25,115 bases of DNA, taken from the IMG/VR virus record IMGVR_UViG_2541047736_000010, positions 1 through 25,115 of that record; one strand, given 5' to 3'. The DNA comes from a virus. Taxonomy: Duplodnaviria; Heunggongvirae; Uroviricota; Caudoviricetes. Below, piece after piece: positions 3,279-23,725 of the stretch. The translations under genes and the position numbers were made by a program. Position 1 is the stretch's first letter. Each line of letters opens with the position of its first letter. The notes under the pieces are model-generated. The model searched no databases. It saw only the letters and a program-made list of their open reading frames with translations, and was not told the origin of the DNA.

Positions 3279-6959
<3,681 letters not shown>

Positions 6960-10622: not shown

Positions 10623-11137
10623 CAGGCTAATGCGCTTTCCTGGTCACGACGAATAACCTGTCCATAGCAGTTATTTGAACGTATGCGGCAATCGCGCCCA
10701 CCATCTTTTATCCACCAGCGAATCGCCTCGCATGCACCTTTACGATCACCGGCATTCAGCCGCTTATAAAACGTCGACGGGAAACACTTACCGGGGCCAA
10801 TGTTATAGGGACAAAATGACGCGATACCCGCTTTCTGTGGTTCGGTCAGTGGCACTTTAATATTGCGCTCCACCCATGCCAGCGCCTTATCCCGTTCAAT
10901 GGCGTTAACCTGGTCGCATTTTTCCTTCGACAGTTTCATACCGGGAAAAACGGGTTTTCCATCCACCACCGTGGCACCCCGACAGATGGTCCAGATGCCG
11001 GAACCATCGCGGTATGCCGTTGTGTGGTTACCTTCTTTTTCATCCAGAAACTGGTCGAGAATATCAGGCGCAGGCGCACCGACGGCAATCAGTGCCAGAA
11101 CGGCAGCCGACAGGCCGTATCTGATTTTTGCGTTCAT
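10604..11137 (-). CDS. SAR endolysin (phage lysozyme with N-terminal signal-anchor-release domain)
   Basis: N-terminal weakly hydrophobic Gly/Ala-rich segment ([16 protein letters not shown]) followed by a lysozyme-like motif ([22 protein letters not shown]). Paired with a class II holin upstream. Confidence 0.85.
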
Positions 11138-12320: not shown

Positions 12321-13262
12321 ATGGCTACTATTGCGCAATCAAAGAAACAAAAAAAACTTAAAATTGGTTTTTACACCAGCAGTTCTGGGACTATCCGCAG
12401 CCATTCAGTTGCTAAGCAAGCAATTGAAAATCTGTATAATACTTGCGTAACCGTTACGAATAATCATTTTGATACCATCTATAGAAATAAAAAGTTAAAA
12501 ATAGCTTTTATAAATAAAGATACAAAAGCTAAATATTTCTTCGGCTACATGTCATGCTCACGAGAAGAGTATCTCCTTCCTTATATTGGTGATGAATACT
12601 GGAATGAGCACAACATACCACTAGATGATAAAAAATACATAGTCGAAAGAACCTATTTTTTATATTATTACGATAGTGATATTTTAATATTAACTCAAAA
12701 TCATCTTGGGCCGAAAGAATCGGATTTAGCTTATCTGCTTTACAGCCAGAGTGGTAATCCTGGAAATAACTTTTCATTCCAAGCCATCTGGAAAAAAGAG
12801 AGCGTCAAAGAGCTACTTGAAACAGGAAGTACTTTGAGAAGTTGTGATATTGTCCTGGCTGCTCCCAGGAACTTTGATGCAACAAATTACCAGTTAAATA
12901 GTTCATTTTCTAAGGAACTGGTAAATATGATGGTAGGGCTGGGTGGAACACATCTCAAGTTAAATCTAAGGGGACGTGCATCAGGGAGAGTAAAAGTCAA
13001 AGGTTATTTATCAGATCTCGTTAAGGATGGTATTAAAGAACTCCTTGAAAAAATGCCGGGAATTGTAAAAAAAGCGGCAGTAACACAGCCCAAAAATACC
13101 GTTGAACAAAGTCTTCTTGATCAGGTACTCATTTCAGAAAAAAACATATATACCGTTAATGGTTATGGCACTGATAGTGATGTTCTGCAAGCCATGATTT
13201 CTGCTAAAATTGATAACAATGAATACCTTAAGCAATACGATATCAGCAAAAAGAAGGTATAG
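12321..13262 (+). CDS. Unknown 313-aa soluble protein; first gene of an AT-rich two-gene cassette (candidate RexA-like sensor)
   Basis: ATG at 12321 with AAGG 6 nt upstream. Visibly AT-rich and lysine-rich. On the strand opposite all surrounding phage genes. Stop is 3 nt before the next gene's ATG. No family confidently recognised by eye. Confidence 0.7.
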   Translation: MATIAQSKKQKKLKIGFYTSSSGTIRSHSVAKQAIENLYNTCVTVTNNHFDTIYRNKKLKIAFINKDTKAKYFFGYMSCSREEYLLPYIGDEYWNEHNIPLDDKKYIVERTYFLYYYDSDILILTQNHLGPKESDLAYLLYSQSGNPGNNFSFQAIWKKESVKELLETGSTLRSCDIVLAAPRNFDATNYQLNSSFSKELVNMMVGLGGTHLKLNLRGRASGRVKVKGYLSDLVKDGIKELLEKMPGIVKKAAVTQPKNTVEQSLLDQVLISEKNIYTVNGYGTDSDVLQAMISAKIDNNEYLKQYDISKKKV

Positions 13263-13265
13263 GAT

Positions 13266-13709
13266 ATGTTATTGAAATACTTAAGAAACCTGATTGTAAG
13301 TGTTTTTTGCACCTTGTTCCTACTGAGGTATATCCCTCAGATGGGGCATGCTGACATACTTACAGCCTCCGGGGTTATTTCAACTGTATCCGGTATTTTA
13401 TTTGGTTTTATTTTAGCCACAATATCAATTTTTAGTGCTGCTAGTGAAAACTCAAATGGAATAATAAAAGCATTAAAAAACAACAACATACTTCAAGTTA
13501 TTATTGTAAATCTATTAACCGCCGGTGCATCTTTAATTACGGCATGCGTTATTGCTTTGATAGCAATGTTTGCCAATGAAAAGACATTGTTACATGGAGA
13601 AAAAATAGAATTTATTTTAATTATCGAATCTTTATCTCTTCTTATCATTTCAGTAATAACTTTTGCCTTTACATGGAGAAAAGTAAACTGGATACTCCCC
13701 CACATTTAA
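13266..13709 (+). CDS. Small polytopic membrane protein (about four TM helices); candidate RexB-like channel/effector
   Basis: 147 aa with four hydrophobic stretches (about residues 9-23, 31-59, 75-102, 115-136). Tightly coupled to the upstream gene. From memory, lambda RexB is 144 aa with four TM helices and an FRHYIPG stretch in its first helix; this protein has LLRYIPQMG at the same place. Confidence 0.75.
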   Translation: MLLKYLRNLIVSVFCTLFLLRYIPQMGHADILTASGVISTVSGILFGFILATISIFSAASENSNGIIKALKNNNILQVIIVNLLTAGASLITACVIALIAMFANEKTLLHGEKIEFILIIESLSLLIISVITFAFTWRKVNWILPHI

Positions 13710-13732: not shown

Positions 13733-14110
13733 CTACTCCATTTCAAGTTTAACATCCAGCATTGAAAGGCATCCATCAATAAACCCTTCAGCCATCTGTA
13801 TCTCTATACGTATCAATTTCTCATCTTTTTTGCGAGCTCTTGCAAGCTTTCTTTTCGAGATGCCATACAGGTAATGGGCCACAATCAAAGAATGCTCGTA
13901 CGGTTTTCGCTTTTTAAGAAGAGCAAGACAACCTTCAATAATTAATGCATCACTATCTGAACAAGCCTGACGTGTTTTGCTTGTATAGGGAAGAAGCCCT
14001 TTAAACCCAGCAGCTACAGGAGAATAGTCTACTCCTGAACTATCACTCGCCGCCCATGCTCCCCAACGATCCAGAACCATTTGAATATCACGCATCAACT
14101 TTCTCCACAA
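13733..14110 (-). CDS. Late antitermination protein Q (phage 82 / QuuD type)
   Basis: MRDIQMVLDRWGAWAASDSSGVDYSPVAAGFKGL...GFIDGCLSMLDVKLEME resembles recalled DLP12 QuuD / phage 82 Q. Start could be the first Met (14110) or the Met five codons in. Confidence 0.85.
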   Translation of the reverse strand: MWRKLMRDIQMVLDRWGAWAASDSSGVDYSPVAAGFKGLLPYTSKTRQACSDSDALIIEGCLALLKKRKPYEHSLIVAHYLYGISKRKLARARKKDEKLIRIEIQMAEGFIDGCLSMLDVKLEME

Positions 14111-14112
14111 AA

Positions 14113-15108
14113 TCAGGCCAGCACGCCAGTTGCCAGCGCACGATCGATAAAACGAAATATCAGCTCCAGCTGGGAGCCATACCTCTCTTCAAATGCCACG
14201 GTATCCGCATGCAGCTCGTCGTGATGCTTTCTGCACAAAGGCAACACAAAAAGGTCATGCGCTTTTGTTCCCATTCCACCCTGACCGTAACCTATCAGGT
14301 GGTGGGGATCATCAGCGGGCTTTCCACAACATGCACACGGCTGTGTCTTAACCCAGCGCGTGTACTTTTCATTAACCCAGCGGCGACGTTTTGGGCGTAA
14401 CATAAAAGACTCCGGCGACTCCGGATCCACTTTCAGCGCCAGCACCTTTTTCGCTTTATCCTGGATAATGCTGGTGGCAGGAACCGAAGGAACAAGGTCA
14501 CTCTCCCGGGTGACAGACGGCACAACAGGCTTCGGTAATCTCAGTGCCTTACGGGCTGCACTTTCCGGTAAGGCATCCGCCAGGTCATTACGAATCAGCC
14601 ACCAGCACAGTTCCGGCATTGTCACAACGTGACTGTCATCAAAACCGAGATCCCGACGCACAACAGACAACACCCAGCGGGCACAGTTATCCGTTGCCAT
14701 TGATTCCAGCCGTTCCGTGAACTGATCGCGCAGCTGGTTATCGCAGTGCCAGCACAGACGGATTGCACCCGGAGCGTGTCGCATTGTGGTCATGTTCTCG
14801 CTGTGCCAGTCGGAATGAGGCCACTGGCAGCCTTTTTCACGAAGTAACCAGCTTTCAAGACATTCCACGCCACCAGCACGACGGATCACTGCCTCATTGC
14901 GGAACACGGCCCGAACGGCAGGATCATCCGCCAGCGGTTGTGATGCCGCCGGAACGGCACCACTCGCGAAAGATGAATAACGCTCCGGCTCAGGCTCCAG
15001 CAGGACACGCCCCTGCATAAACAGGGGCATCAGCTCTGAACCTGGCCTGAACAATACGATCCCCATACGCGGGGCAACTTCAGGGGTCAGTAGTGCTCTC
15101 ACGGTCAC
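14113..15108 (-). CDS. DUF968 family protein (YdfU-like)
   Basis: C-terminal motif CACCGKPADDPHHLIGYGQGGMGTKAHDLFVLPLCRKHHDELHAD is typical of DUF968 proteins found just upstream of Q in Qin-like prophages. Confidence 0.6.
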   Translation of the reverse strand: MTVRALLTPEVAPRMGIVLFRPGSELMPLFMQGRVLLEPEPERYSSFASGAVPAASQPLADDPAVRAVFRNEAVIRRAGGVECLESWLLREKGCQWPHSDWHSENMTTMRHAPGAIRLCWHCDNQLRDQFTERLESMATDNCARWVLSVVRRDLGFDDSHVVTMPELCWWLIRNDLADALPESAARKALRLPKPVVPSVTRESDLVPSVPATSIIQDKAKKVLALKVDPESPESFMLRPKRRRWVNEKYTRWVKTQPCACCGKPADDPHHLIGYGQGGMGTKAHDLFVLPLCRKHHDELHADTVAFEERYGSQLELIFRFIDRALATGVLA

Positions 15109-15109
15109 C

Positions 15110-15907
15110 TCAATGAACGGTATCGAGCAGCTTTAACAGCTCAGGGAATCGGGATTCGAAGAAATGCGGCTGCGTCTCGCGCGGATTTGCGGGACTGGTG
15201 ATATTCTTGCCGAACATGCAGCCTTTCGCTGTCAGCGACCAGAATTTTTTGATGTTGTTAATCGCGGTACGGCTGTATCGTTCGCGCTGCTCGACGATCC
15301 CCAGCTTCACCATCTGGTGATATGCCTGATTAGCTGTCAGGCGGATACCATACTGCTTCAGCAGTGCACTCAGTGACAGCGTGGGGCGGCTTGAGCCATC
15401 AGGCGCGTCAGCAGGAGCATCAATGGCATAGCGCGGTGCCAGATTCGGTAAGCCAACAGCCTCCTGGAGTTTCTGACAGGCACCAAGCACTGAAGAGTTA
15501 GACAGGTTTAATTCCCGGCGCATAAAGTCCAGCAGAATCACACCAGCCTGCATCTTGTCAGCAGCCTGTCCGGATAATTTTTCCGGTGCGCTGGTTACCA
15601 TGTCGAAAGTACGGATCACCTTCAGATGGAATGACGGGCTGATCCACATTGCATAGGCATACACCAGTTCTTTGCAGACATACGTCCCCTGGTTATTTCC
15701 GCCACGAATAACGTTAACTGGCTCTATATTGACCGAGTTGCAAATCTGCAACTCGCTTATTAAACGTTCAGTTTGCTCATTGCGGAGCCAGAATGCAGGC
15801 TTATGCTTATCCAGAGAACCGGCAGCCCTGTGCAGATCGTTCAGGCTGTAACGACCATAAGCATCACGACGAACTTCAATACCATCAATGACCATCAGAT
15901 TATTCAT
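15110..15907 (-). CDS. KilA-N domain protein (Roi / antirepressor-like), nin-region
   Basis: N-terminus MNNLMVIDGIEVRRDAYGRYSLNDLHRAAGSLDKHKPAFWLRNEQTERLISEL is a clear KilA-N signature. Located between RusA and DUF968. Confidence 0.7.
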   Translation of the reverse strand: MNNLMVIDGIEVRRDAYGRYSLNDLHRAAGSLDKHKPAFWLRNEQTERLISELQICNSVNIEPVNVIRGGNNQGTYVCKELVYAYAMWISPSFHLKVIRTFDMVTSAPEKLSGQAADKMQAGVILLDFMRRELNLSNSSVLGACQKLQEAVGLPNLAPRYAIDAPADAPDGSSRPTLSLSALLKQYGIRLTANQAYHQMVKLGIVEQRERYSRTAINNIKKFWSLTAKGCMFGKNITSPANPRETQPHFFESRFPELLKLLDTVH

Positions 15908-15926: not shown

Positions 15927-16316
15927 TCAGGCGGCTGCACCCGCCGGTTTCTCATACTTACTGATAGTGATCTCGACCTTCCCTTTCGGGATAACCGGTC
16001 CCCACTCCACCAGCATTCTTTTCACCTGACTGTCGTCTTCCCACACCCCCGCGTGGGTCAGGGCGTCAAACAGCGCCTTGTTATAGTTGTCCAGATCGCG
16101 GATCCGGTTATCCGGAGGAAACAACACGATCTCCACTGAAGCAGGTGCCGACGTTGGTTTCGGCAGGCGACGTAACTGCTCAACTATTGCTGCGCACGCC
16201 GCGCTCTGGAATTTGCGCCCCGCTGCGCTTATCAGACTCTTACCAGCAAACGCCCCTTTGTTGGGGTGTCGCCAGTACGTGTTCACGCTGGGCGGAAAAG
16301 GCAGGATCAGCTTCAT
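15927..16316 (-). CDS. rusA: Holliday junction resolvase RusA
   Basis: 129 aa with PFPPSVNTYWRH, RDLDNYNKALFDALTHAGVWEDDSQV motifs characteristic of the RusA family. Confidence 0.85.
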   Translation of the reverse strand: MKLILPFPPSVNTYWRHPNKGAFAGKSLISAAGRKFQSAACAAIVEQLRRLPKPTSAPASVEIVLFPPDNRIRDLDNYNKALFDALTHAGVWEDDSQVKRMLVEWGPVIPKGKVEITISKYEKPAGAAA

Positions 16317-16639
16317 ACTTTCAGGCCCCTCTCATGTAACCAGTGGGCTGCACGCAGCCTGGCGTTTTCCTCACCGGCAAGCAGTGCGCGGATAATCCCG
16401 ACCGCCTCGTTGTCGTCGTCCTTCACAGCGGTATGAAGCGTTATCCCCCGTGCCACGCCACGCTTTATCGTGATGACGCCTTTTTTCTCCAGTGCGCGAA
16501 GATGCTCCACCGCTGCATTCACCGAACGGTATCCCAGCATGGTTGCCACCTCCTGATTGGTTGGCGGAAAGCCACGCTCTTTCTGATAAGAAATCAGCAT
16601 ATCCAGCACCTGCTGCTGGCATTGAGTTAACGTCGTCAT
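16313..16639 (-). CDS. LexA-like N-terminal DNA-binding domain protein (no peptidase domain)
   Basis: LTQCQQQVLDMLISYQKERGFPPTNQEVATMLGYRSVNAAVEHLRALEKKGVITIKRGVARGITL resembles the LexA winged-helix N-domain. Start placed at the internal ATG 16637-16639, which overlaps the upstream stop (TAATG). Confidence 0.6.
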   Translation of the reverse strand: MTTLTQCQQQVLDMLISYQKERGFPPTNQEVATMLGYRSVNAAVEHLRALEKKGVITIKRGVARGITLHTAVKDDDNEAVGIIRALLAGEENARLRAAHWLHERGLKV

Positions 16640-17133
16640 TACGCCCCCACGTAATTCCCTGACAGATACCACTCTTCACCCGATGCAGCCCGCTTACTGC
16701 TTTTCCGTAAACACCGTTCACGACGCGCCAGAAAATTGTTTCGTTCTGGCTGGGAGTGGCTTTCACGGAATGCCGCCATCCACACCGTTGCAGCACGACG
16801 GTATAAGCCCCTGGACTCCAGTTCTTCAGCCTGGCGGGTCAGGCACAAAATCACCCGTGGATCGTTAGTGCCGACATAGAAATTGCGCACAGGTCTGGTT
16901 TCACGAACTGGTTGTGGTTCCGGCTCCTGCGCTCTCTCAGTCAGGCGCGGGAAATGTCTGCATGTATCTCCTTCACAACGGTGAGCCACACGCCCACTCT
17001 GACGTAACTTGCTTGCAGACTGCAGAACGCGCTGCCGTGAGTAACCTGCAAAAGCATCCGCAATGTCTCCGGAAGTACACCCCGGATGGGCTTCAATGAA
17101 TTTCTGAACGTCATTTAACAGACTCATGATCAC
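16639..17133 (-). CDS. Putative regulator with PerC-like C-terminal region
   Basis: C-terminal RGLYRRAATVWMAAF resembles the GLWRRAA..W motif I recall from PerC/Pch-family activators. N-terminal half looks winged-helix-like. Assignment is tentative. Confidence 0.4.
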   Translation of the reverse strand: MIMSLLNDVQKFIEAHPGCTSGDIADAFAGYSRQRVLQSASKLRQSGRVAHRCEGDTCRHFPRLTERAQEPEPQPVRETRPVRNFYVGTNDPRVILCLTRQAEELESRGLYRRAATVWMAAFRESHSQPERNNFLARRERCLRKSSKRAASGEEWYLSGNYVGA

Positions 17134-18071
17134 CCCCTGAATCCTGCAGGGATCTGGCTGTAGTCCACGTTGTCGTAACTGGATTTGAAGTACGGGTCTT
17201 CGCGTTTTTCGGTGTACGTGCTGACGGACGGTGATAAGCGCAGGGAAAGCTCATCCCATTTTTCCCGCAACTTCGACGGGCTGAGCACGTTACGGCACCA
17301 GAACGGATCGCGGCTGACGCGGCTGTACATCTCGCAGATTTGTTTGTGAGTACGACCATCCTGTACACACATCAGGCGAATTTCGTTTGCCCAGGCTGTC
17401 CAGTTCGGTTCTTTGGGACGAACCACCTCGCCGTCACATTCGGCGGCTTGCTCGTACAGGGCGATGATTTTTTTCCAGAGCCACTGTGCGCAGGTCAAAT
17501 CATCCTGCGTTCCCCACTGGCGCTTTTTAGGGCTGAATACAACCGCATCAGGATGGCGAGTTAAAAAATCCTGTTCATCCGTCTGCGTGTCCGGTTGCGA
17601 AGCGTCCGGACGAGAAGGTTTTTTATCTGACGGATCATGTTTTGATTTTACTGACGGATCCCCGCCAGATTCTGACGGGTGAAAACCCGCTTTTTTGCCA
17701 GATTTCGACGCATCAAATTTTGACGGGTCAGATTTTAATGCGTCAGATTTTGACGGGTCAGAATCTGACAGTTGAGAAAATGCCGCTGCCTGAAGCTTCG
17801 CAACGTTAAGCTGATAAACATTCGACGCATTGCGGTTACCCTGGCGACGCGCCTTACGCGTTAACCAGCCTTCTGCTTCCAGCCGTGCGATAGCCGTCCT
17901 GACGGTACTCATCCCCGCGCCAATCTGACGGGCAATAGTTTCAATTGATGGCCAGCACACACCTTCGTCATTACTGAAATCAGCCAGGCGGGCCATAATT
18001 GCCACGCTGGATAATTTCATGCCTGATGCAGCGCAACCATCCCATACATAGCCGGTTAATTTAGTGCTCAT
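17130..18071 (-). CDS. Replication initiation protein (lambda O-like role) with iteron-encoded linker
   Basis: N-terminal HTH region (SSVAIMARLADFSNDEGVCWPSIETIARQIGAGMSTVRTAIARLEAEGWL) and a low-complexity D/S/K/P-rich central linker encoded by the iteron DNA, as in lambda O. GAGG ribosome-binding site before the ATG at 18069-18071. Confidence 0.7.
   Translation of the reverse strand: MSTKLTGYVWDGCAASGMKLSSVAIMARLADFSNDEGVCWPSIETIARQIGAGMSTVRTAIARLEAEGWLTRKARRQGNRNASNVYQLNVAKLQAAAFSQLSDSDPSKSDALKSDPSKFDASKSGKKAGFHPSESGGDPSVKSKHDPSDKKPSRPDASQPDTQTDEQDFLTRHPDAVVFSPKKRQWGTQDDLTCAQWLWKKIIALYEQAAECDGEVVRPKEPNWTAWANEIRLMCVQDGRTHKQICEMYSRVSRDPFWCRNVLSPSKLREKWDELSLRLSPSVSTYTEKREDPYFKSSYDNVDYSQIPAGFRG
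17620..17775. repeat. Iteron array, candidate origin of replication inside the initiator gene
   Basis: Core (T)TGACGG(G/A)T repeated at about 17626, 17651, 17671, 17720 and 17749, with variants at 17704 and 17763 and an inverted copy at about 17738. Spacing is 20-29 bp, interspersed with T-runs. Confidence 0.6.
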
Positions 18072-18080
18072 GACCGACCT

Positions 18081-18419
18081 CTATTTCCCTGAATTTACGA
18101 CGAAACTGTTCGAGCGGGCTGAAGCACTCATGCTCATAGCCTTCGCGGAGGTAGATAACTCGTTGTGTTTCCGGCTCCCAACGAATGACTCTGACGGGCA
18201 CTCCGTAGTGATCTTTGAACCAGCGGTTAACTTGTCGCAAAGGACTGTCTCCTTCTGCCGGTTGAAATCACCCACAGCCCACTCAGCAAAGCTGTGGGTT
18301 ACAATTTCCCTGTCACCTGGTACATTAACTGCATAGCAATACTCCACCTTCGCTTTTCCACCCGGTACAGGAAGCGCAATCAGTTGCGAGCGACGGTAGT
18401 GTGTTGTTAAACTGTTCAT
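18081..18419 (-). CDS. Hypothetical protein between the YdaT-like gene and the replication initiator
   Basis: 112-aa ORF whose ATG overlaps the upstream stop (ATGA coupling). The C-terminal half is Ser-rich and low-complexity, so the true reading frame or end is uncertain. Confidence 0.4.
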
Positions 18420-19024
18420 GCGTTAGTTTCTCCACAGTCACGACACGCCACGGCGCCCGGAGCTGCACACTCGCGGGCGTCATTACTTTCTGAAATGCAA
18501 AAGATTTTGTAGACCAGTGCTGCATGCTCCTGCAGCTTCGAAATTGAGAGATACAGCTCGTCGTTAATTGCTGTCTTCTCATGCGGTTCCACCACACCGT
18601 CTTCGATTGCCGAACGAATCTGTCTGGAATAACTGCCAATCTGTTCAATGACTTCCAGCAGGCGCTGGTTAATATCGGCGTTGTCCACATCCTCGACGTC
18701 AGGAAGAGACACAAAGACGCCATTTGCAGCCTGCGCCACAGCGTCAGCAATGAAGTGAGTTCCACCAGCACGTTGCAAAATCATTGCCCATCCCAGCGGG
18801 AAAATCTGATCGCCATCGGCACGAAGGCGGTTAAATAATGCGTTTTCTGTTACATCCAGCCAGTCAGCTGCTTCAGCGTAACCACCCGGCAACGCTGCGA
18901 TAGTTTTTCTGACAGCTTTCACGTACCACTCAGGCTGTTTTTCTACTTTCCAGTGATGCTTACCCACGGTTAGCCTCATCGTTCTGTGGTTTCTGTTAAT
19001 CGATTTATCCATTAGATTTTTCAT
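18416..19024 (-). CDS. YdaT-like protein (CII functional analogue in Rac-type immunity regions)
   Basis: Follows the Cro/YdaS-like gene, as YdaT does in Rac-type prophages. The track ORF (to 19081) overlaps the Cro-like gene, so the start is placed at an internal ATG (19022-19024; alternative 19010-19012). Assignment by position and size, not strong sequence recall. Confidence 0.45.
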
Positions 19025-19205
19025 AAAGCTCAGGTTTAAATGGCAACCGTCCGCAAGTTCTATATGCAGCTTCTGCTGCACGTCCTTTTGGAATTAACTG
19101 GCCCGGACGGTTTCGCCACTGATAAACGGCTTCAGTTGTTATGCCGAAAAAAGCAGCAACTTTCTCAATACTGCCGAAGTAGCTTTCGATATCGTCAGTT
19201 GTCAT
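19005..19205 (-). CDS. Cro-like repressor (YdaS-type HTH)
   Basis: 66 aa, [50 protein letters not shown] matches the Cro/YdaS HTH pattern. Divergent from the cI-like gene across a 97-bp operator region. Confidence 0.75.
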   Translation of the reverse strand: MTTDDIESYFGSIEKVAAFFGITTEAVYQWRNRPGQLIPKGRAAEAAYRTCGRLPFKPELYEKSNG

Positions 19206-19302: not shown

Positions 19303-19929
19303 ATGGAAACGGTTGGTCAGCGTATAAAAGCTCTGAGAAGAGTTACCGGAACGTCCCAGAAAGAATTGGGTAAATTTTGTGGAGTAAGCGACGTTGCTGT
19401 GGGGTACTGGGAGAAAGACATCAATACCCCTGGTGGGGAGGCACTTTCGAAATTAGCGAAGTTCTTCAATACGTCAATAGATTACATTCTTTATGGTGCT
19501 GAGTTTGAAGGCAAACTCGTCACAAACATGCGCAGAGTTCCTGTAATATCGTGGGTTCAGGCTGGGCAGTTTACTGAGTGCAGGGCAGCAGAAGTGTTTA
19601 GTGAAGTGGACAAGTGGGTAGATACATCATTAAAGATTGGTGATAACTCATTTGCATTAGAGGTTAAAGGTGACTCCATGACTAACCCTAATGGCCTCCC
19701 AACAATACCAGAAGGCGCAACAGTGATTGTAGATCCAGATGCAGAACCTCGTCATGGAAAAATAGTCATCGCTCGACTTGATGGAACAAACGAAGCTACA
19801 GTAAAAAAATTAGTCATCGATGGCCCTCAAAAGTTTTTAGTGCCATTAAATCCTCGGTATCCCAACATCCCTATCAATGGTAATTGCCTTATCATTGGTG
19901 TAGTCAAAGGAGTTCAATACGAACTCTAA
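19303..19929 (+). CDS. CI-type prophage repressor (HTH plus S24 LexA-like autopeptidase domain)
   Basis: N-terminal XRE-type HTH (QKELGKFCGVSDVAVGYWEKD). C-terminal S24 signature with GDSM (catalytic Ser) and VKKL (Lys). No strong ribosome-binding site, so possibly leaderless like lambda cI from pRM. Confidence 0.9.
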   Translation: METVGQRIKALRRVTGTSQKELGKFCGVSDVAVGYWEKDINTPGGEALSKLAKFFNTSIDYILYGAEFEGKLVTNMRRVPVISWVQAGQFTECRAAEVFSEVDKWVDTSLKIGDNSFALEVKGDSMTNPNGLPTIPEGATVIVDPDAEPRHGKIVIARLDGTNEATVKKLVIDGPQKFLVPLNPRYPNIPINGNCLIIGVVKGVQYEL

Positions 19930-21578: not shown

Positions 21579-22403
21579 ATGTCTCAGAACTTAGACGCAA
21601 CCGCAATTAATCAAATCCATGCCCTTATTTCTGCTCAGGGTGTTAATGAAATTATCAGTAAGATTGGTGCCGATGCTGTGGCATTGCCTGAGAATTTCCG
21701 CATTCATGATCTGGAAAAATTTAATTTAAATCGCTTCCGTTTCCGTGGTGCGCTTTCCACTGCCAGCATCGATGACTTTACCCGTTATTCTAAAGATCTT
21801 GCAGATGAAGGCACCCGCTGCTTTATCGATGCTGATAATATGCGAGCCGTCAGTGTGCTTAACCTGGGTACTATTGATGAACCAGGTCACGCAGATAACA
21901 CCGCCACTCTCAAACTGAAAAAGACAGCACCGTTCTCTGCCCTGTTGTCTGTTAACGGCGAGCGTAACTCCCAGAAGTCACTGGCAGAATGGATTGAAGA
22001 CTGGGCCGACTACCTTGTGGGCTTTGATGCTAATGGTGACGCCATTCAGGCAACAAAAGCGGCTGCGGCGGTCCGTAAAATCACGATTGAAGCAAACCAG
22101 ACCGCTGATTTTGAAGACAATGACTTCAGCGGCAAACGCTCTCTGATGGAGTCTGTCGAAGCGAAAACCAAAGACATTATGCCAGTAGCATTTGAGTTTA
22201 AATGCGTTCCGTTTGAAGGCCTGAAAGAACGTCCGTTTAAATTACGCCTCAGCATTATCACTGGTGATCGCCCTGTACTGGTTCTGCGCATTATTCAGCT
22301 GGAAGCAGTGCAGGAAGAAATGGCTAACGAATTTCGTGATCTGCTTGTTGAAAAATTCAAAGACAGCAAAGTAGAAACCTTTATTGGTACTTTCACCGCC
22401 TGA
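21579..22403 (+). CDS. yfdQ: YfdQ-like protein (DUF2303)
   Basis: 274-aa [57 protein letters not shown]... recognised as the CPS-53 YfdQ family. Confidence 0.8.
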
Positions 22404-22530
22404 TTTCATTACTGCAAATGCCCCTGCGGGGGCATTTATGGAAACGTAATTAACTCAATAATCGCCTGATGGCGAGGGTTTTCTTTAACCAAAATTCAGC
22501 GCGGTGCAGCGCATATACGTGGAGAACAAA

Positions 22531-23067
22531 ATGTCATTTATTAAAACTTTTTCCGGGAAGCATTTTTATTATGACAGGATAAATAAAGACGACATCGATA
22601 TTAACGATATCGCGGTTTCCCTTTCAAATATCTGTCGCTTTGCCGGTCATCTTTCGCACTTCTACAGCGTCGCCCAACATGCGGTTCTTTGCAGCCAGCT
22701 GGTGCCGCAGGAATTTGCTTTTGAAGCGTTAATGCATGATGCAACAGAAGCGTATTGCCAGGACATTCCCGCACCACTGAAACGCCTTCTTCCTGACTAT
22801 AAACAAATGGAAGAAAAAATAGACGCCGTAATCCGTGAGAAATACGGGTTACCCCCAGTTATGAGTACGCCCGTGAAATATGCCGATCTCATCATGCTGG
22901 CAACCGAACGCCGCGATCTCGGGCTTGATGATGGCTCTTTCTGGCCTGTACTGGAAGGTATCCCGGCAACAGAGATGTTCAACGTGATTCCACTGGCACC
23001 GGGCCATGCCTACGGGATGTTTATGGAACGCTTTAACGAGTTATCGGAGTTACGCAAATGCGCATGA
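22531..23067 (+). CDS. yfdR: HD-domain 5'-deoxynucleotidase YfdR-like
   Basis: From the internal ATG 22531 (GGAG 6 nt upstream) gives 178 aa, MSFIKTFSGKHFYYDRINKDDIDINDIAVSLSNICRFAGH...LMHDATEAYCQDIP, with HD-phosphohydrolase-like His/Asp motifs. Confidence 0.8.
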   Translation: MSFIKTFSGKHFYYDRINKDDIDINDIAVSLSNICRFAGHLSHFYSVAQHAVLCSQLVPQEFAFEALMHDATEAYCQDIPAPLKRLLPDYKQMEEKIDAVIREKYGLPPVMSTPVKYADLIMLATERRDLGLDDGSFWPVLEGIPATEMFNVIPLAPGHAYGMFMERFNELSELRKCA

Positions 23068-23420
23068 ATGTTTTCGAAATGGAAGGGTTTCTTCGTGGGA
23101 GATGTGTACCGCGAGATCTGAAAGTAAATGAAACAGATGCTGAATACCTGGTGCGTAAATTCGATGCGCTTGAAGCTAAATGTGCAGCACAGGAAAACAA
23201 AGTAATACCAGTGTCAACTGAACTGCCACCAGCAAATGAAAGTGTTTTGTTATTCGATGCTAACGGAGAAGGCTGGCTAATTGGCTGGCGTTCTCTCTGG
23301 TACACCTGGGGACAAAAAGAAACCGGAGAATGGCAGTGGACATTTCAGGTCGGGGACCTTGAAAACGTCAATATCACTCACTGGGCAGTAATGCCAAAAG
23401 CACCGGAGGCTGGAGCATAA
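23058..23420 (+). CDS. yfdS: YfdS-like protein
   Basis: 120-aa MRMNVFEMEGFLRGRCVPRDLKVNETDAEYLVRKFDALEAK... overlapping the yfdR stop. Same order as in CPS-53. Confidence 0.7.
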   Translation: MRMNVFEMEGFLRGRCVPRDLKVNETDAEYLVRKFDALEAKCAAQENKVIPVSTELPPANESVLLFDANGEGWLIGWRSLWYTWGQKETGEWQWTFQVGDLENVNITHWAVMPKAPEAGA

Positions 23421-23725
23421 TGACCACTTTTACCGACAAAGAACTGATTAAAGAAATTAAAGAGCGTATCAGCAGCCTTGACGTGCGAGACGATATTGAG
23501 CGCCGTGCTTATGAAATCGCACTCCTATCTCTGGAAGTAGAACCAGATGAACGCGAAGCTTATGAATTATTCATGGAAAAGCGTTTCGGTGACTTAGTAG
23601 ATCGTCGGAGAGCAAAAAACGGCGATAACGAATACATGGCATGGGATATGACTCTCGGTTGGATCGTCTGGCAGCAACGAGCTGGTATCCATTTTTCAAC
23701 AATGTCACAGCAAGAGGTGAAATAA
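23420..23725 (+). CDS. yfdT: YfdT-like protein
   Basis: 101-aa MTTFTDKELIKEIKERISSLDVRDDIERRAYEIALLSLEVEPDEREAYELFMEK... Start overlaps the yfdS stop. Confidence 0.7.
   Translation: MTTFTDKELIKEIKERISSLDVRDDIERRAYEIALLSLEVEPDEREAYELFMEKRFGDLVDRRRAKNGDNEYMAWDMTLGWIVWQQRAGIHFSTMSQQEVK

Follow-up and report, generated by a model that had tools for sequence, protein, structure and literature searches.

The initiator gene and its neighbours

The locus lies in a window of 25,115 nucleotides (the whole stretch of tailed-phage DNA that was analysed, to which all coordinates refer) and comprises an O-like initiator gene, a repeat array inside that gene and two further genes of the same operon. The coding features are the following (the asterisk in peptide motifs denotes the stop):

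17130..18071, minus strand: initiator gene, O-like, 313 aa (ORF; Pfam HTH_36; phrog_391; BLASTP against lambda O; AlphaFold2)
17778..18071, minus strand: N-terminal winged-helix DNA-binding domain (aa 1-98), presumed iteron reader (Pfam, AlphaFold2, Foldseek)
17226..17576, minus strand: lambda-O-type C-terminal helical domain (aa 166-282)
17133..17165, minus strand: DnaT-like tail motif DYSQIPAGFRG* (aa 303-313), short and conserved, within the disordered C-terminus
16639..17133, minus strand: YfdN-like protein, 164 aa, with a wHTH-like N-terminal part and a PerC domain (Pfam PerC, 8.2e-09)
16313..16672, minus strand: LexA DNA-binding-domain-only protein, 119 aa, next in the operon (Pfam LexA_DNA_bind, 3.7e-19)

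In the initiator, a disordered linker joins a winged-helix N-domain to a C-domain of lambda-O type, which is followed by a tail that is likewise disordered. The protein matched Pfam HTH_36 (4.3e-11), the HTH_36/GntR/MarR matches being located at aa 23-82, and the PHROGs family phrog_391, 'replication initiation O-like' (1.5e-135). Residues 131-277 were aligned by BLASTP with the C-domain of lambda O (36% identity over 149 aa, E 1e-25), and homology was also seen by tblastn against lambda, 21, phi80 and Stx1 phages. In the AlphaFold2 model the N-domain was made up of helices and a beta-hairpin (block-mean pLDDT about 61-88), with MarR/ArsR-type wHTH proteins as best Foldseek matches, while linker residues 102-164 and the tail had pLDDT values below 50. 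PF04492 (Phage_rep_O) was not among the Pfam matches of the initiator and no N-terminal alignment to lambda O was obtained; PDB sequence and profile searches returned weak MarR-type wHTH matches only, and no solved relative.

Downstream, the PerC-like regulator and the LexA-type protein named in the first-pass annotation were both recovered. The GTG start of the former, whose gene is named yfdN by PGAP, overlaps the initiator stop (GTGA). Its candidacy as an analogue of lambda P was rejected: it had no similarity to P and was not conserved across loader-less relatives, many of which lack the gene. The YfdN-like protein probably does not belong to the replication machinery. A PADLOC search of the adjoining unknown genes gave no match.

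Repeats and the proposed origin in the linker-coding DNA

The linker (aa 99-165) is encoded by positions 17577-17777, in which the following features were delimited:

17613..17775, no strand assigned: proposed origin (iteron array plus least stable DNA), inside the linker-coding part of the initiator gene
17699..17773: five tandem 15-bp units, gene strand TCTGACCCGTCAAAA (TRF and direct/inverted repeat search)
17673..17680, plus strand: iteron core TGACGGGT (gene strand CACCCGTCAGAA, peptide HPSE)
17649..17660, plus strand: most conserved site TACTGACGGATC (gene strand GATCCGTCAGTA, peptide DPSV)
17628..17636, plus strand: distal conserved site TGACGGATC (gene strand GATCCGTCA, peptide DPSD)
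17613..17652, no strand assigned: least stable 40-mer in the gene, candidate DNA-unwinding element (nearest-neighbour stability scan)

The sequence TGACGGRT was matched six times in the 25-kb window, five of these matches being found within 17628-17758. Chance expectation was 1.28 (sd 1.15) per whole window, and a count of six was reached in 0 of 100 shuffles. The exact cores start at 17628, 17652, 17673, 17721 and 17751 on the plus strand. TRF reported 4.3 copies of a 15-bp unit, CAGATTTTGACGGGT, at 17699-17762, and the repeat search extended this array to five units ending at 17773, with two perfect cores (17721-17728 and 17751-17758) and three degenerate ones. Each 15-bp unit contains a GTCA-N5-TGAC dyad, i.e. 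an inverted pair. The 'five to seven' copies initially counted were thus borne out by five exact cores and three degenerate units. The spacing of roughly 20-29 bp proposed with them was only partly correct: the intervals between successive exact cores are 24, 21, 48 and 30 bp, and a strict 15-bp (5-codon) period is confined to the promoter-proximal half of the array. Their location in a low-complexity linker of the 313-aa ORF was also verified, the encoded peptide being DPSKS/DALKS/DPSKF/DASKS...HPSE...DPSV...DPSD.

The candidate unwinding element, at the promoter-distal end of the array, is 70% A+T and has a dG of -47.0 against a regional mean of -55.8 (sd 3.9), a weak feature of about 2.3 sd. 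No DnaA box (TTATCCACA, up to one mismatch) was found within 17130-18071, the nearest ones being located at 18428 and 18681; a plasmid-like, DnaA-assisted origin is therefore not supported. Dam sites (GATC) occur at 17657-17660, inside the most conserved site, and at 17633-17636, within the distal one. GATC was not enriched across the initiator gene, whose 942 bp contain four sites where the window as a whole has 3.0 per kb, and this coincidence with two conserved sites is the only notable point about them.

Codon analysis of diverged relatives showed that the repeat core is constrained as DNA. The 12-mer GATCCGTCAGTA was identical in 52 of 69 genes and the distal site GATCC[AG]TCA was present in 51 of 69, although the sequences share phylogenetic descent, so that these and the following counts overstate independence. 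At third codon positions, entropy was 0-0.26 bits in GATCCGTCAGTA, while the codons of the invariant MARLAD peptide in the same genes gave 1.0-1.8 bits. Serine in the linker xPS motifs was encoded by TCA in 209 of 217 cases, compared with 574 of 2279 in the remainder of these genes, and proline by CCG or CCA in 200 of 217. CCRTCA sites were concentrated in the linker, mostly two to six per gene (70 genes), and conservation of the CCGTCA core at synonymous sites spanned genera. Such conservation points to a function at the DNA level, beyond the constraint on the peptide.

As a control, the same repeat search recovered the four iterons of lambda in its O gene, at the equivalent linker position. 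Relatives with different N-domains had different linker repeats: 23-bp dyads in one locus (L075), and an array of the 15-bp unit TTGACCC[CG]TCAAATA at the linker position in two others (L013 and L015). Additionally, the N-domain and the repeat linker were inherited as a unit, joined to either a lambda-O-C or a Phg_2220_C C-domain. The analogy with the ori-within-O arrangement of lambda, drawn when the window was first annotated, was upheld by the homologous C-domain and by repeats at lambda's inter-domain linker position. On the basis of these comparisons, 17613-17775 is very probably a theta-type iteron origin of a lambdoid prophage, located inside its own O-like initiator gene.

A loader-less module, and the DnaT-like tail of its initiator

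Absence of a P, DnaC or DnaB homologue from the early-right operon had been noted at first reading, and was extended to the whole window: phmmer searches with E. coli DnaC, DnaB, lambda P and a second P homologue gave nothing at E<=10 in its 320 stop-to-stop frames. Likewise, no loader emerged among the ORFs of the operon when these were compared with Pfam and PHROGs profiles. The same module, 97-99% identical, is carried by phages isolated as such (SfIV, SfII, Kati, PhiR29/49 and vB_EcoM-689R6), and the annotation of the complete SfIV genome includes no homologue of P, DnaC or DnaB. As SfIV is viable with this module and no annotated loader, the suggestion that the module is incomplete was rejected, and we consider it highly probable that it is genuinely loader-less. 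In a 2025 survey, O-only lambdoid modules (a single O homologue, no helicase or loader) were recorded in 34 of 314 phages and their replication was described as 'not yet understood' (PMC12315714).

The new observation of this analysis is that the initiator ends in the conserved C-terminal tail of host DnaT. Aligned at their very C-termini, the initiator and E. coli DnaT share eight of nine residues; the DnaT tail is nearly invariant across 107 orthologues (motif PD..IP.GFRG*). P308, G310 and R312 of the initiator tail were conserved at 90% or more, while flanking residues varied. The likeness does not extend further: the DnaT domain PF17948, present in 120 of 120 DnaT orthologues among the matches listed, was not matched by the initiator, and no similarity to the ssDNA-binding three-helix C-domain of DnaT was detectable by sequence. 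Judged by such comparisons, the tail is a shared motif only, and the initiator is not a member of the DnaT family.

The distribution of the tail was analysed among 77 genomic loci of relatives. It was found in 49, of which 48 had no loader and one had DnaC, whereas the lambda-type tail occurred in eight loci, all with P; the DnaT-like tail and the P gene are mutually exclusive among relatives. WxxIW-type C-termini were found in 19 loci having neither the DnaT-like tail nor a loader, so that the tail is not the sole route to loader-less replication. A scan of viral contigs by C-domain alignment yielded only loci at least 97% identical, and informs prevalence rather than diversity. Tail-bearing viral ORFs were therefore collected by matching a degenerate DNA pattern of this motif, and a converse set by a DnaC-anchored scan. 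The tail terminated 72 long viral ORFs; a DnaC homologue lay directly downstream of 33 of them, at +0 to +7 nt, and none was followed by P or DnaB. Conversely, in the DnaC-selected viral loci the upstream ORF ended in P.GF[RK]G in 80 of 80 cases and belonged to at least four architectures; these loci represent a single enterobacterial clade, with 73-100% identity to the query. The phage DnaC homologues were 47-50% identical to E. coli DnaC, and the host dnaT-dnaC gap is 2 nt. The tail is a portable motif, carried by at least four unrelated phage initiator architectures directly upstream of dnaC homologues.

Part of this pattern may have another origin. The last tail codons of the initiator, AGG GGG TGA, also provide a Shine-Dalgarno sequence and an overlapping stop for the next gene, and more generally the series TTC AGG/AGA GGG/GGA stop doubles as the Shine-Dalgarno of a tightly coupled downstream gene, dnaT-dnaC included. 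A translational-coupling cassette, as opposed to a protein contact, could consequently account for some of the conservation of 'RG*' and some of the linkage to dnaC.

Proposed helicase recruitment and comparison with known systems

Taken as a whole, a loader-less O-like origin at which the tail engages host DnaC for delivery of DnaB is the explanation that we find somewhat probable. The GTCA-N5-TGAC dyads would be occupied by N-domain dimers, giving a complex that resembles the O-some, and the 70% A+T stretch adjoining the iterons would melt. The helicase would be obtained without a phage loader, DYSQIPAGFRG* engaging host DnaC in the DnaB6-DnaC6 complex and thereby delivering DnaB to the origin. 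Direct recruitment of host helicase or loader by the initiator, already suggested in the first-pass annotation, is hence favoured by inference, with the DnaT-like tail as candidate element. The particular step of recruitment from tail to DnaC, based on motif likeness and gene linkage, is plausible but falls just short of probable.

Another possibility is that the tail mimics DnaT in the restart pathway and engages PriA and/or PriB, loading then proceeding through the PriA-dependent primosome with no direct contact to DnaC. The motif is after all DnaT's own tail, and other mobile replicons, e.g. ColE1-type plasmids and phage Mu, load their helicase in a PriA-dependent manner. Moreover, in preprimosome structures reported in 2026 the DnaT C-domain docks on PriA via a conserved hydrophobic interface; the N-domain of DnaT, not the tail, was proposed as a possible recruiter of DnaB/DnaC, and the actual means of recruitment was stated to be unknown (PMC13377028). 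The partner of the tail could accordingly be PriA or another protein. However, the tail precedes phage dnaC homologues in all 80 DnaC-selected loci and sits on origin-binding initiators that would have no need of fork recognition by PriA. As the initiator has neither PF17948 nor detectable similarity to the DnaT C-domain, most of the surfaces by which DnaT contacts PriA and PriB are absent from it, and we consider this route unlikely. A non-homologous phage protein acting as loader or adaptor, either the YfdN-like wHTH+PerC protein or one of the small upstream ORFs without assigned function (18061-18240 and 18081-18419), seems very improbable. The overlap of the yfdN start with the initiator stop recalls the adjacent O and P genes of lambda, and YfdN-like genes lie at -4 nt after the initiator in many relatives, but a PerC activator domain is the only Pfam match of YfdN, helicase-related profiles matched no ORF of the operon, and in many loader-less relatives without YfdN a Dam or MT-A70 methylase gene directly follows the initiator.

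The repeats themselves could be read as a slippage-prone, low-complexity protein linker and nothing else, with the origin located elsewhere or initiation depending on recombination or transcription. The 15-bp period corresponds to five codons, and the copy number of the unit differs by 5-codon steps between near-identical homologues, as replication slippage would produce; relatives of this phage type are also described as lacking Rec modules and needing host RecBCD/Chi for growth (PMC12315714). This reading is nevertheless highly improbable in view of the synonymous conservation of the core, which far exceeds that of the invariant structural peptide of the same genes, and of the two most conserved sites, which fall outside the tandem array. 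Different N-domains are moreover accompanied by different repeats at the same place, lambda's proven iterons among them, and N-domain and repeats are co-inherited across C-domain swaps. We give least credence, and very little, to the module being a defective remnant of a prophage unable to replicate autonomously without a helper. The gene is widespread in cryptic prophages and the copy in the window lacks a dam gene found in close relatives; against this, the initiator ORF is intact, the phages listed above as carrying nearly identical modules have been isolated and propagated, and dam is absent from SfIV too (PMC3851460).

The loader-less origin proposed here resembles that of lambda in the position of the iterons, inside the initiator gene and in the linker between the DNA-binding N-domain and the C-domain, and in the gene order cro-cII-initiator. 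It differs from it in several respects. The N-domain is of HTH_36 type, not Phage_rep_O; the units have a CCGTCA core and partly a 15-bp period, where lambda has four 18-20-bp ATCCCTCAAAACGAGGGA repeats; a PerC-type gene lies downstream, with no P gene; and the C-terminus reads ..IPAGFRG* instead of ..DLTNTDWIYGVDL*.

No difference in kind separates the module from the O-only lambdoids of the phage LLS / mEp460_4F5 group, as defined by Zheng, Casjens et al. (Genome Res 2025, PMC12315714), and mEp460_4F5 was 96% identical to it over 72% of the query. It is therefore a member of a class already catalogued in 2025; neither origin repeats nor a DnaT-like tail was found described in the available part of that article. 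Shigella phages SfIV and SfII (gp41, 'primosomal protein' or 'O protein') and the yfdO-yfdN remnant of E. coli CPS-53 have their genes in the same order, with DNA that is 97-98% identical. A dam methylase gene between yfdN and the LexA-type gene, present in SfII and most relatives, is absent from the window and SfIV, whose genome paper designates orf41-45 a 'replication module' and does not discuss a loader (PMC3851460).

Host DnaT-DnaC shares with these phages the tail motif, and the tail-bearing gene of phage relatives is placed directly upstream of a dnaC homologue, as is dnaT. Unlike DnaT, the initiator would be origin-specific and independent of fork structure, besides lacking the DnaT domains. 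Modules combining an initiator and a DnaC-type loader (Rac ydaU-ydaV-like, DUF1376-type) bear the same tail on their initiators, and some share the HTH_36 N-domain and the lambda-O C-domain family (325-aa E. coli type), but they encode a DnaC homologue of their own, for which there is no counterpart here. The Rep proteins of iteron plasmids (pSC101 RepA, RK2 TrfA, R6K pi) recruit host DnaB/DnaC without a plasmid-encoded loader, at origins that are intergenic and usually contain DnaA boxes. The working principle would be the same, namely a winged-helix initiator, iterons and the helicase and loader of the host, whereas the origin is here intragenic and no DnaA box (up to one mismatch) is present within the gene. 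Eru typing of Stx phages was also considered as a source of mechanism and discarded: HTH_36 proteins are listed for some Eru types, the typing papers offer no mechanism, and Eru1-3 are different modules.

A broader proposal can be advanced tentatively, and we hold it to be rather doubtful at present. PD..IP.GFRG* may be a portable recruiter of DnaB6-DnaC6, common to DnaT and to many unrelated enterobacterial phage initiators, so that O-only lambdoids would take DnaB-DnaC directly from the host. The same tail would then bring DnaB-DnaC to the PriA-PriB-DnaT preprimosome, and dnaT-dnaC might represent a domesticated phage cassette of 'initiator-tail + loader'. The location of the origin and the conserved disordered tail bear on how O-only lambdoid phages load DnaB, and the tail also on how DnaT recruits DnaB-DnaC in replication restart, a point listed as unknown in the structural work of 2026 (PMC13377028). 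The initiator module matched 2715 of 5426 complete E. coli genomes, about half of them, many of these matches being partial. It also occurs in Shigella serotype-converting phages, and parts of it match Stx2c-converting phages.

Early-right operon and search for a loader gene

The window corresponds to a lambdoid prophage whose early-right operon lies on the minus strand. Genes from the cI-type repressor to Q were arranged as follows.

19303-19929, plus strand: cI-type repressor
19005-19205, minus strand: Cro
18416-19081, minus strand: CII/YmfL-like protein
18061-18419, minus strand: small ORFs, no named product
17130-18071, minus strand: 313-aa initiator
16639-17133, minus strand: PerC-domain protein
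16313-16672, minus strand: LexA-DBD-only protein
15927-16316, minus strand: RusA
15110-15907, minus strand: KilA-N
14113-15108, minus strand: DUF968/HNH
13733-14110, minus strand: Q

The genes next to the initiator had been described as PerC-like and LexA-DBD, in an operon devoid of P, DnaC or DnaB homologues, and both statements held. E. coli DnaC and DnaB, lambda P and another P homologue were used as phmmer queries against the 320 stop-to-stop frames (>=40 aa) of the window, and none gave a hit at E<=10. Pfam, PHROGs and NCBIfam assigned no helicase or loader function to the operon ORFs, those lacking assignment included, and no loader is annotated among the 54 genes of the complete 39.8-kb SfIV genome. 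The PerC-type neighbour was rejected as a counterpart of P, having no similarity to it and being absent from many loader-less relatives. On these grounds the module, suspected earlier of being incomplete, was judged complete as it stands.

This replication module is extremely common: it matches 2715 of 5426 complete E. coli genomes and is 97-99% identical in phages SfIV, SfII, vB_EcoM-689R6, Kati and PhiR29/49, while mEp460_4F5 matches it at 96% over 72% of the query. Shigella flexneri SFBU0723 encodes an identical initiator. Phage LLS likewise carries an O homologue only, a type represented by 34 of 314 enterobacterial lambdoid phages, 'none studied experimentally', whose replication is 'not yet understood' (Zheng, Casjens and colleagues, PMC12315714). 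The window element is a member of this known, mechanistically unexplained O-only class.

Initiator domains and iteron array

The full-length initiator matches phrog_391 'replication initiation O-like' (1.5e-135). Its N-terminus matches Pfam HTH_36 (4.3e-11) and, in Foldseek, winged helices of MarR/ArsR type, and residues 131-277 align with lambda O 139-270 (36% identity, E 1e-25); tblastn gave the same C-domain match in phages 21, phi80 and Stx1 phages. Sequence search found no solved relative.

The first-pass annotation had reported about five to seven TGACGG(G/A)T repeats inside the initiator ORF, correctly as to count and place, but with a spacing of roughly 20-29 bp that must be replaced by 15, 21, 24, 30 and 48 bp. 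Five exact TGACGGRT cores occupy 17628-17758, against 1.28 expected for the whole window, whose total of six was reached by 0 of 100 shuffles. TRF and repeat search delimited five tandem copies of a 15-bp unit (TCTGACCCGTCAAAA on the gene strand) at 17699-17773; the core is perfect in two and degenerate in three, and every copy has a GTCA-N5-TGAC dyad (inverted pairs I5 and I7). Three more cores lie beyond, at 24- and 21-bp spacing. The least stable 40-mer of the gene (17613-17652, 70% A+T), a weak feature, is at the promoter-distal end of the array, and no DnaA box was found within the gene. The repeats encode DPSKS-like pentapeptides, the low-complexity linker recognized previously, and this segment (residues 102-164) is disordered in the AlphaFold2 model (pLDDT <50). 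Three near-identical E. coli homologues (P0006, P0015 and P0019 of the initiator alignment A1; 303, 287 and 274 aa) are distinguished from the 313-aa protein solely by deletions within the repeat linker or where it joins the N-domain, so that natural prophages vary in the number of iteron copies.

Codon usage was analyzed in 70 distinct relatives from other genera (45-100% protein identity). Of 217 serines in the linker xPS motifs, 209 are TCA, compared with 574 of 2279 other serines of the same genes; of the 217 prolines, 200 are CCG or CCA. CCRTCA sites concentrate in the linker, mostly two to six per gene. The DPSV site, which is not in tandem, has one and the same 12-mer, GATCCGTCAGTA, in 52 of 69 genes, with third-position entropies of 0-0.26 bits, compared with 1.0-1.8 bits and 44 different 18-mers for the invariant structural peptide MARLAD. 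This codon bias indicates that the core of the linker repeat is under purifying selection as DNA.

The proposed parallel with the lambda origin within O was corroborated by C-domain homology and by position, as the same repeat search, applied to the O gene, recovered the four lambda iterons at the corresponding place. The same place holds five 23-bp dyad repeats in L075, a locus with a different N-domain, and a 15-bp TTGACCC[CG]TCAAATA array in L013 and L015, from a second HTH_36 subtype. N-domain and repeat linker are co-inherited, while the C-domain swaps between the lambda-O type and Pfam Phg_2220_C. Constraint, equivalent position and co-inheritance are what would be predicted for a unit made of an initiator with its iterons.

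Both most conserved iteron sites open with a Dam site, GATC (17633-17636 and 17657-17660), and in all 69 genes GAT encodes the aspartate of the DPSV site. In most relatives (L025-L058) the replication genes are directly followed by a gene for a Dam or MT-A70 adenine methylase, which the window and SfIV lack. These features suggest a possible methylation-sensitive control of the origin.

DnaT-like tail and proposed helicase recruitment

The initiator ends in ...SSYDNVDYSQIPAGFRG*, identical to E. coli DnaT at 8 of 9 residues of the exact C-terminus; some relatives are nearer still (..VNHISEPDTEIPPGFRG*, ..RERDINAISRPDTSIPPGFRG*). This likeness probably accounts for the legacy annotation 'primosomal protein I'. 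The DnaT tail is almost invariant across 107 orthologues, and in the initiator family it forms a conserved island (P308, G310, R312) within a variable, disordered C-terminus.

Initiator tail types and loader genes sought within about 5 kb at 77 genomic loci
DnaT-like tail: 49 loci; no loader at 48, DnaC at 1
Lambda-type acidic-aromatic tail (..HWNSPEAWENTL, ..DWIDGIENDL): 8 loci; P at 8/8
WxxIW-type tail: 19 loci; no loader
Other tail (L074, ..IPEGF....DDDFI): 1 locus; DnaC

In WxxIW-type initiators (335-353 aa; L016-L024, L037, L053, L059, L066, L068, L073, L076-L079, L083-L084) a terminal ..W[NA]xIW[KQ]..Q.. extension takes the place of a DnaT-like or lambda-type tail. With neither P nor DnaC nor DnaB inside about 5 kb, this group looks like a second loader-less solution. 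The L074 initiator (3777-4679) has an internal ..IPEGF.. and a DnaC homologue downstream of it; the initiator's end, ..GGTDDDFI, recalls the acidic C-terminal tip of SSB.

A degenerate DNA pattern for D..IP.GFRG-stop, run on viral contigs, retrieved 72 long ORFs, which fall into six or more groups by N-terminal sequence. For 33 of them the next gene, 0 to 7 nt downstream, is a DnaC homologue (E 1e-72 to 1e-80); P or DnaB follows none. Conversely, all 80 viral loci picked solely by a DnaC homologue, which belong to a single clade, have an upstream ORF ending in P.GF[RK]G, in at least four architectures. In each of these samples the sequences share ancestry. Host dnaT-dnaC has the same layout, 2 nt apart, and phage and host DnaC are 47-50% identical.

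From these comparisons we infer the functions of origin, initiator and tail. Most simply, the tail would contact DnaC or DnaB-DnaC, loader-less phages using those of the host. Direct recruitment of host helicase or loader, as envisaged by the first-pass annotation, is supported, with the tail as candidate element, and the underlying observation is confirmed. Conservation of the terminal 'RG' and the dnaC linkage may, however, partly reflect a translational-coupling cassette: the terminal pattern TTC AGG/AGA GGG/GGA stop is the Shine-Dalgarno of the coupled downstream gene, both in the initiator (AGG GGG TGA, 17133-17141) and in dnaT (AGA GGG TAA, L085 2476-2490), and 28 of 35 distinct viral tails use AGG or AGA for this arginine. 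These bases would serve as peptide motif and coupling signal alike, but the I-P-x-G-F codons show synonymous variation, speaking for selection at the peptide level. A role directed at PriA is a real rival, since in the preprimosome structures of 2026 the DnaT C-domain sits on PriA and the N-domain is suggested as a possible DnaB/DnaC recruiter, the tail being left undiscussed (PMC13377028).

The DnaT/O-like connection is not wholly new, as Brezellec et al. detected a DnaT C-terminal motif in the O-like protein DopC by HHpred (PMC5509034); the literature searched contained no description of a tail-DnaC association. The element offers a defined origin and a specific, cheap-to-test hypothesis for helicase recruitment, which bears also on how DnaT works.

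Other features of the window

Upstream of the initiator, two minus-strand ORFs overlap in different frames (18061-18240 and 18081-18419) and match separate PHROGs (phrog_1343 and phrog_1170). Records are split between DUF4222 (PGAP, 689R6) and a 112-aa ORF (SfIV); for the shared part, at most one annotation is likely right. The LexA-DBD protein (119 aa, phrog_362) has no S24 peptidase domain; it would be a non-cleavable LexA-box binder, possibly modulating the SOS response or phage switch. Between Q and the lysis genes, two opposite-strand genes (12321-13709, plus strand) in a moron-like position encode a 313-aa DUF6731 protein and a 147-aa predicted membrane protein, with no match in PADLOC.

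Chi octamers were found at 10712, 14599, 14870, 16007, 18762 and 23226 (CCACCAGC) and at 14470 (GCTGGTGG), six of seven in the same orientation, and no exo/bet/gam-type Rec module was seen in the window. Both observations fit the Chi-rich, Rec-less lambdoid class described together with phage LLS (PMC12315714). The early-left operon contains a yfdQ-yfdR-yfdS-yfdT-like cluster (21579-23725, plus strand) encoding DUF2303, an HD-domain YfbR-like protein, DUF551 and a 101-aa ORF. E. coli K-12 YfdR binds DnaA and inhibits DnaA-DnaB and DnaA-DiaA interactions (PMC4776307); the cluster might shut down oriC and free helicase for a phage dependent on host DnaB-DnaC.
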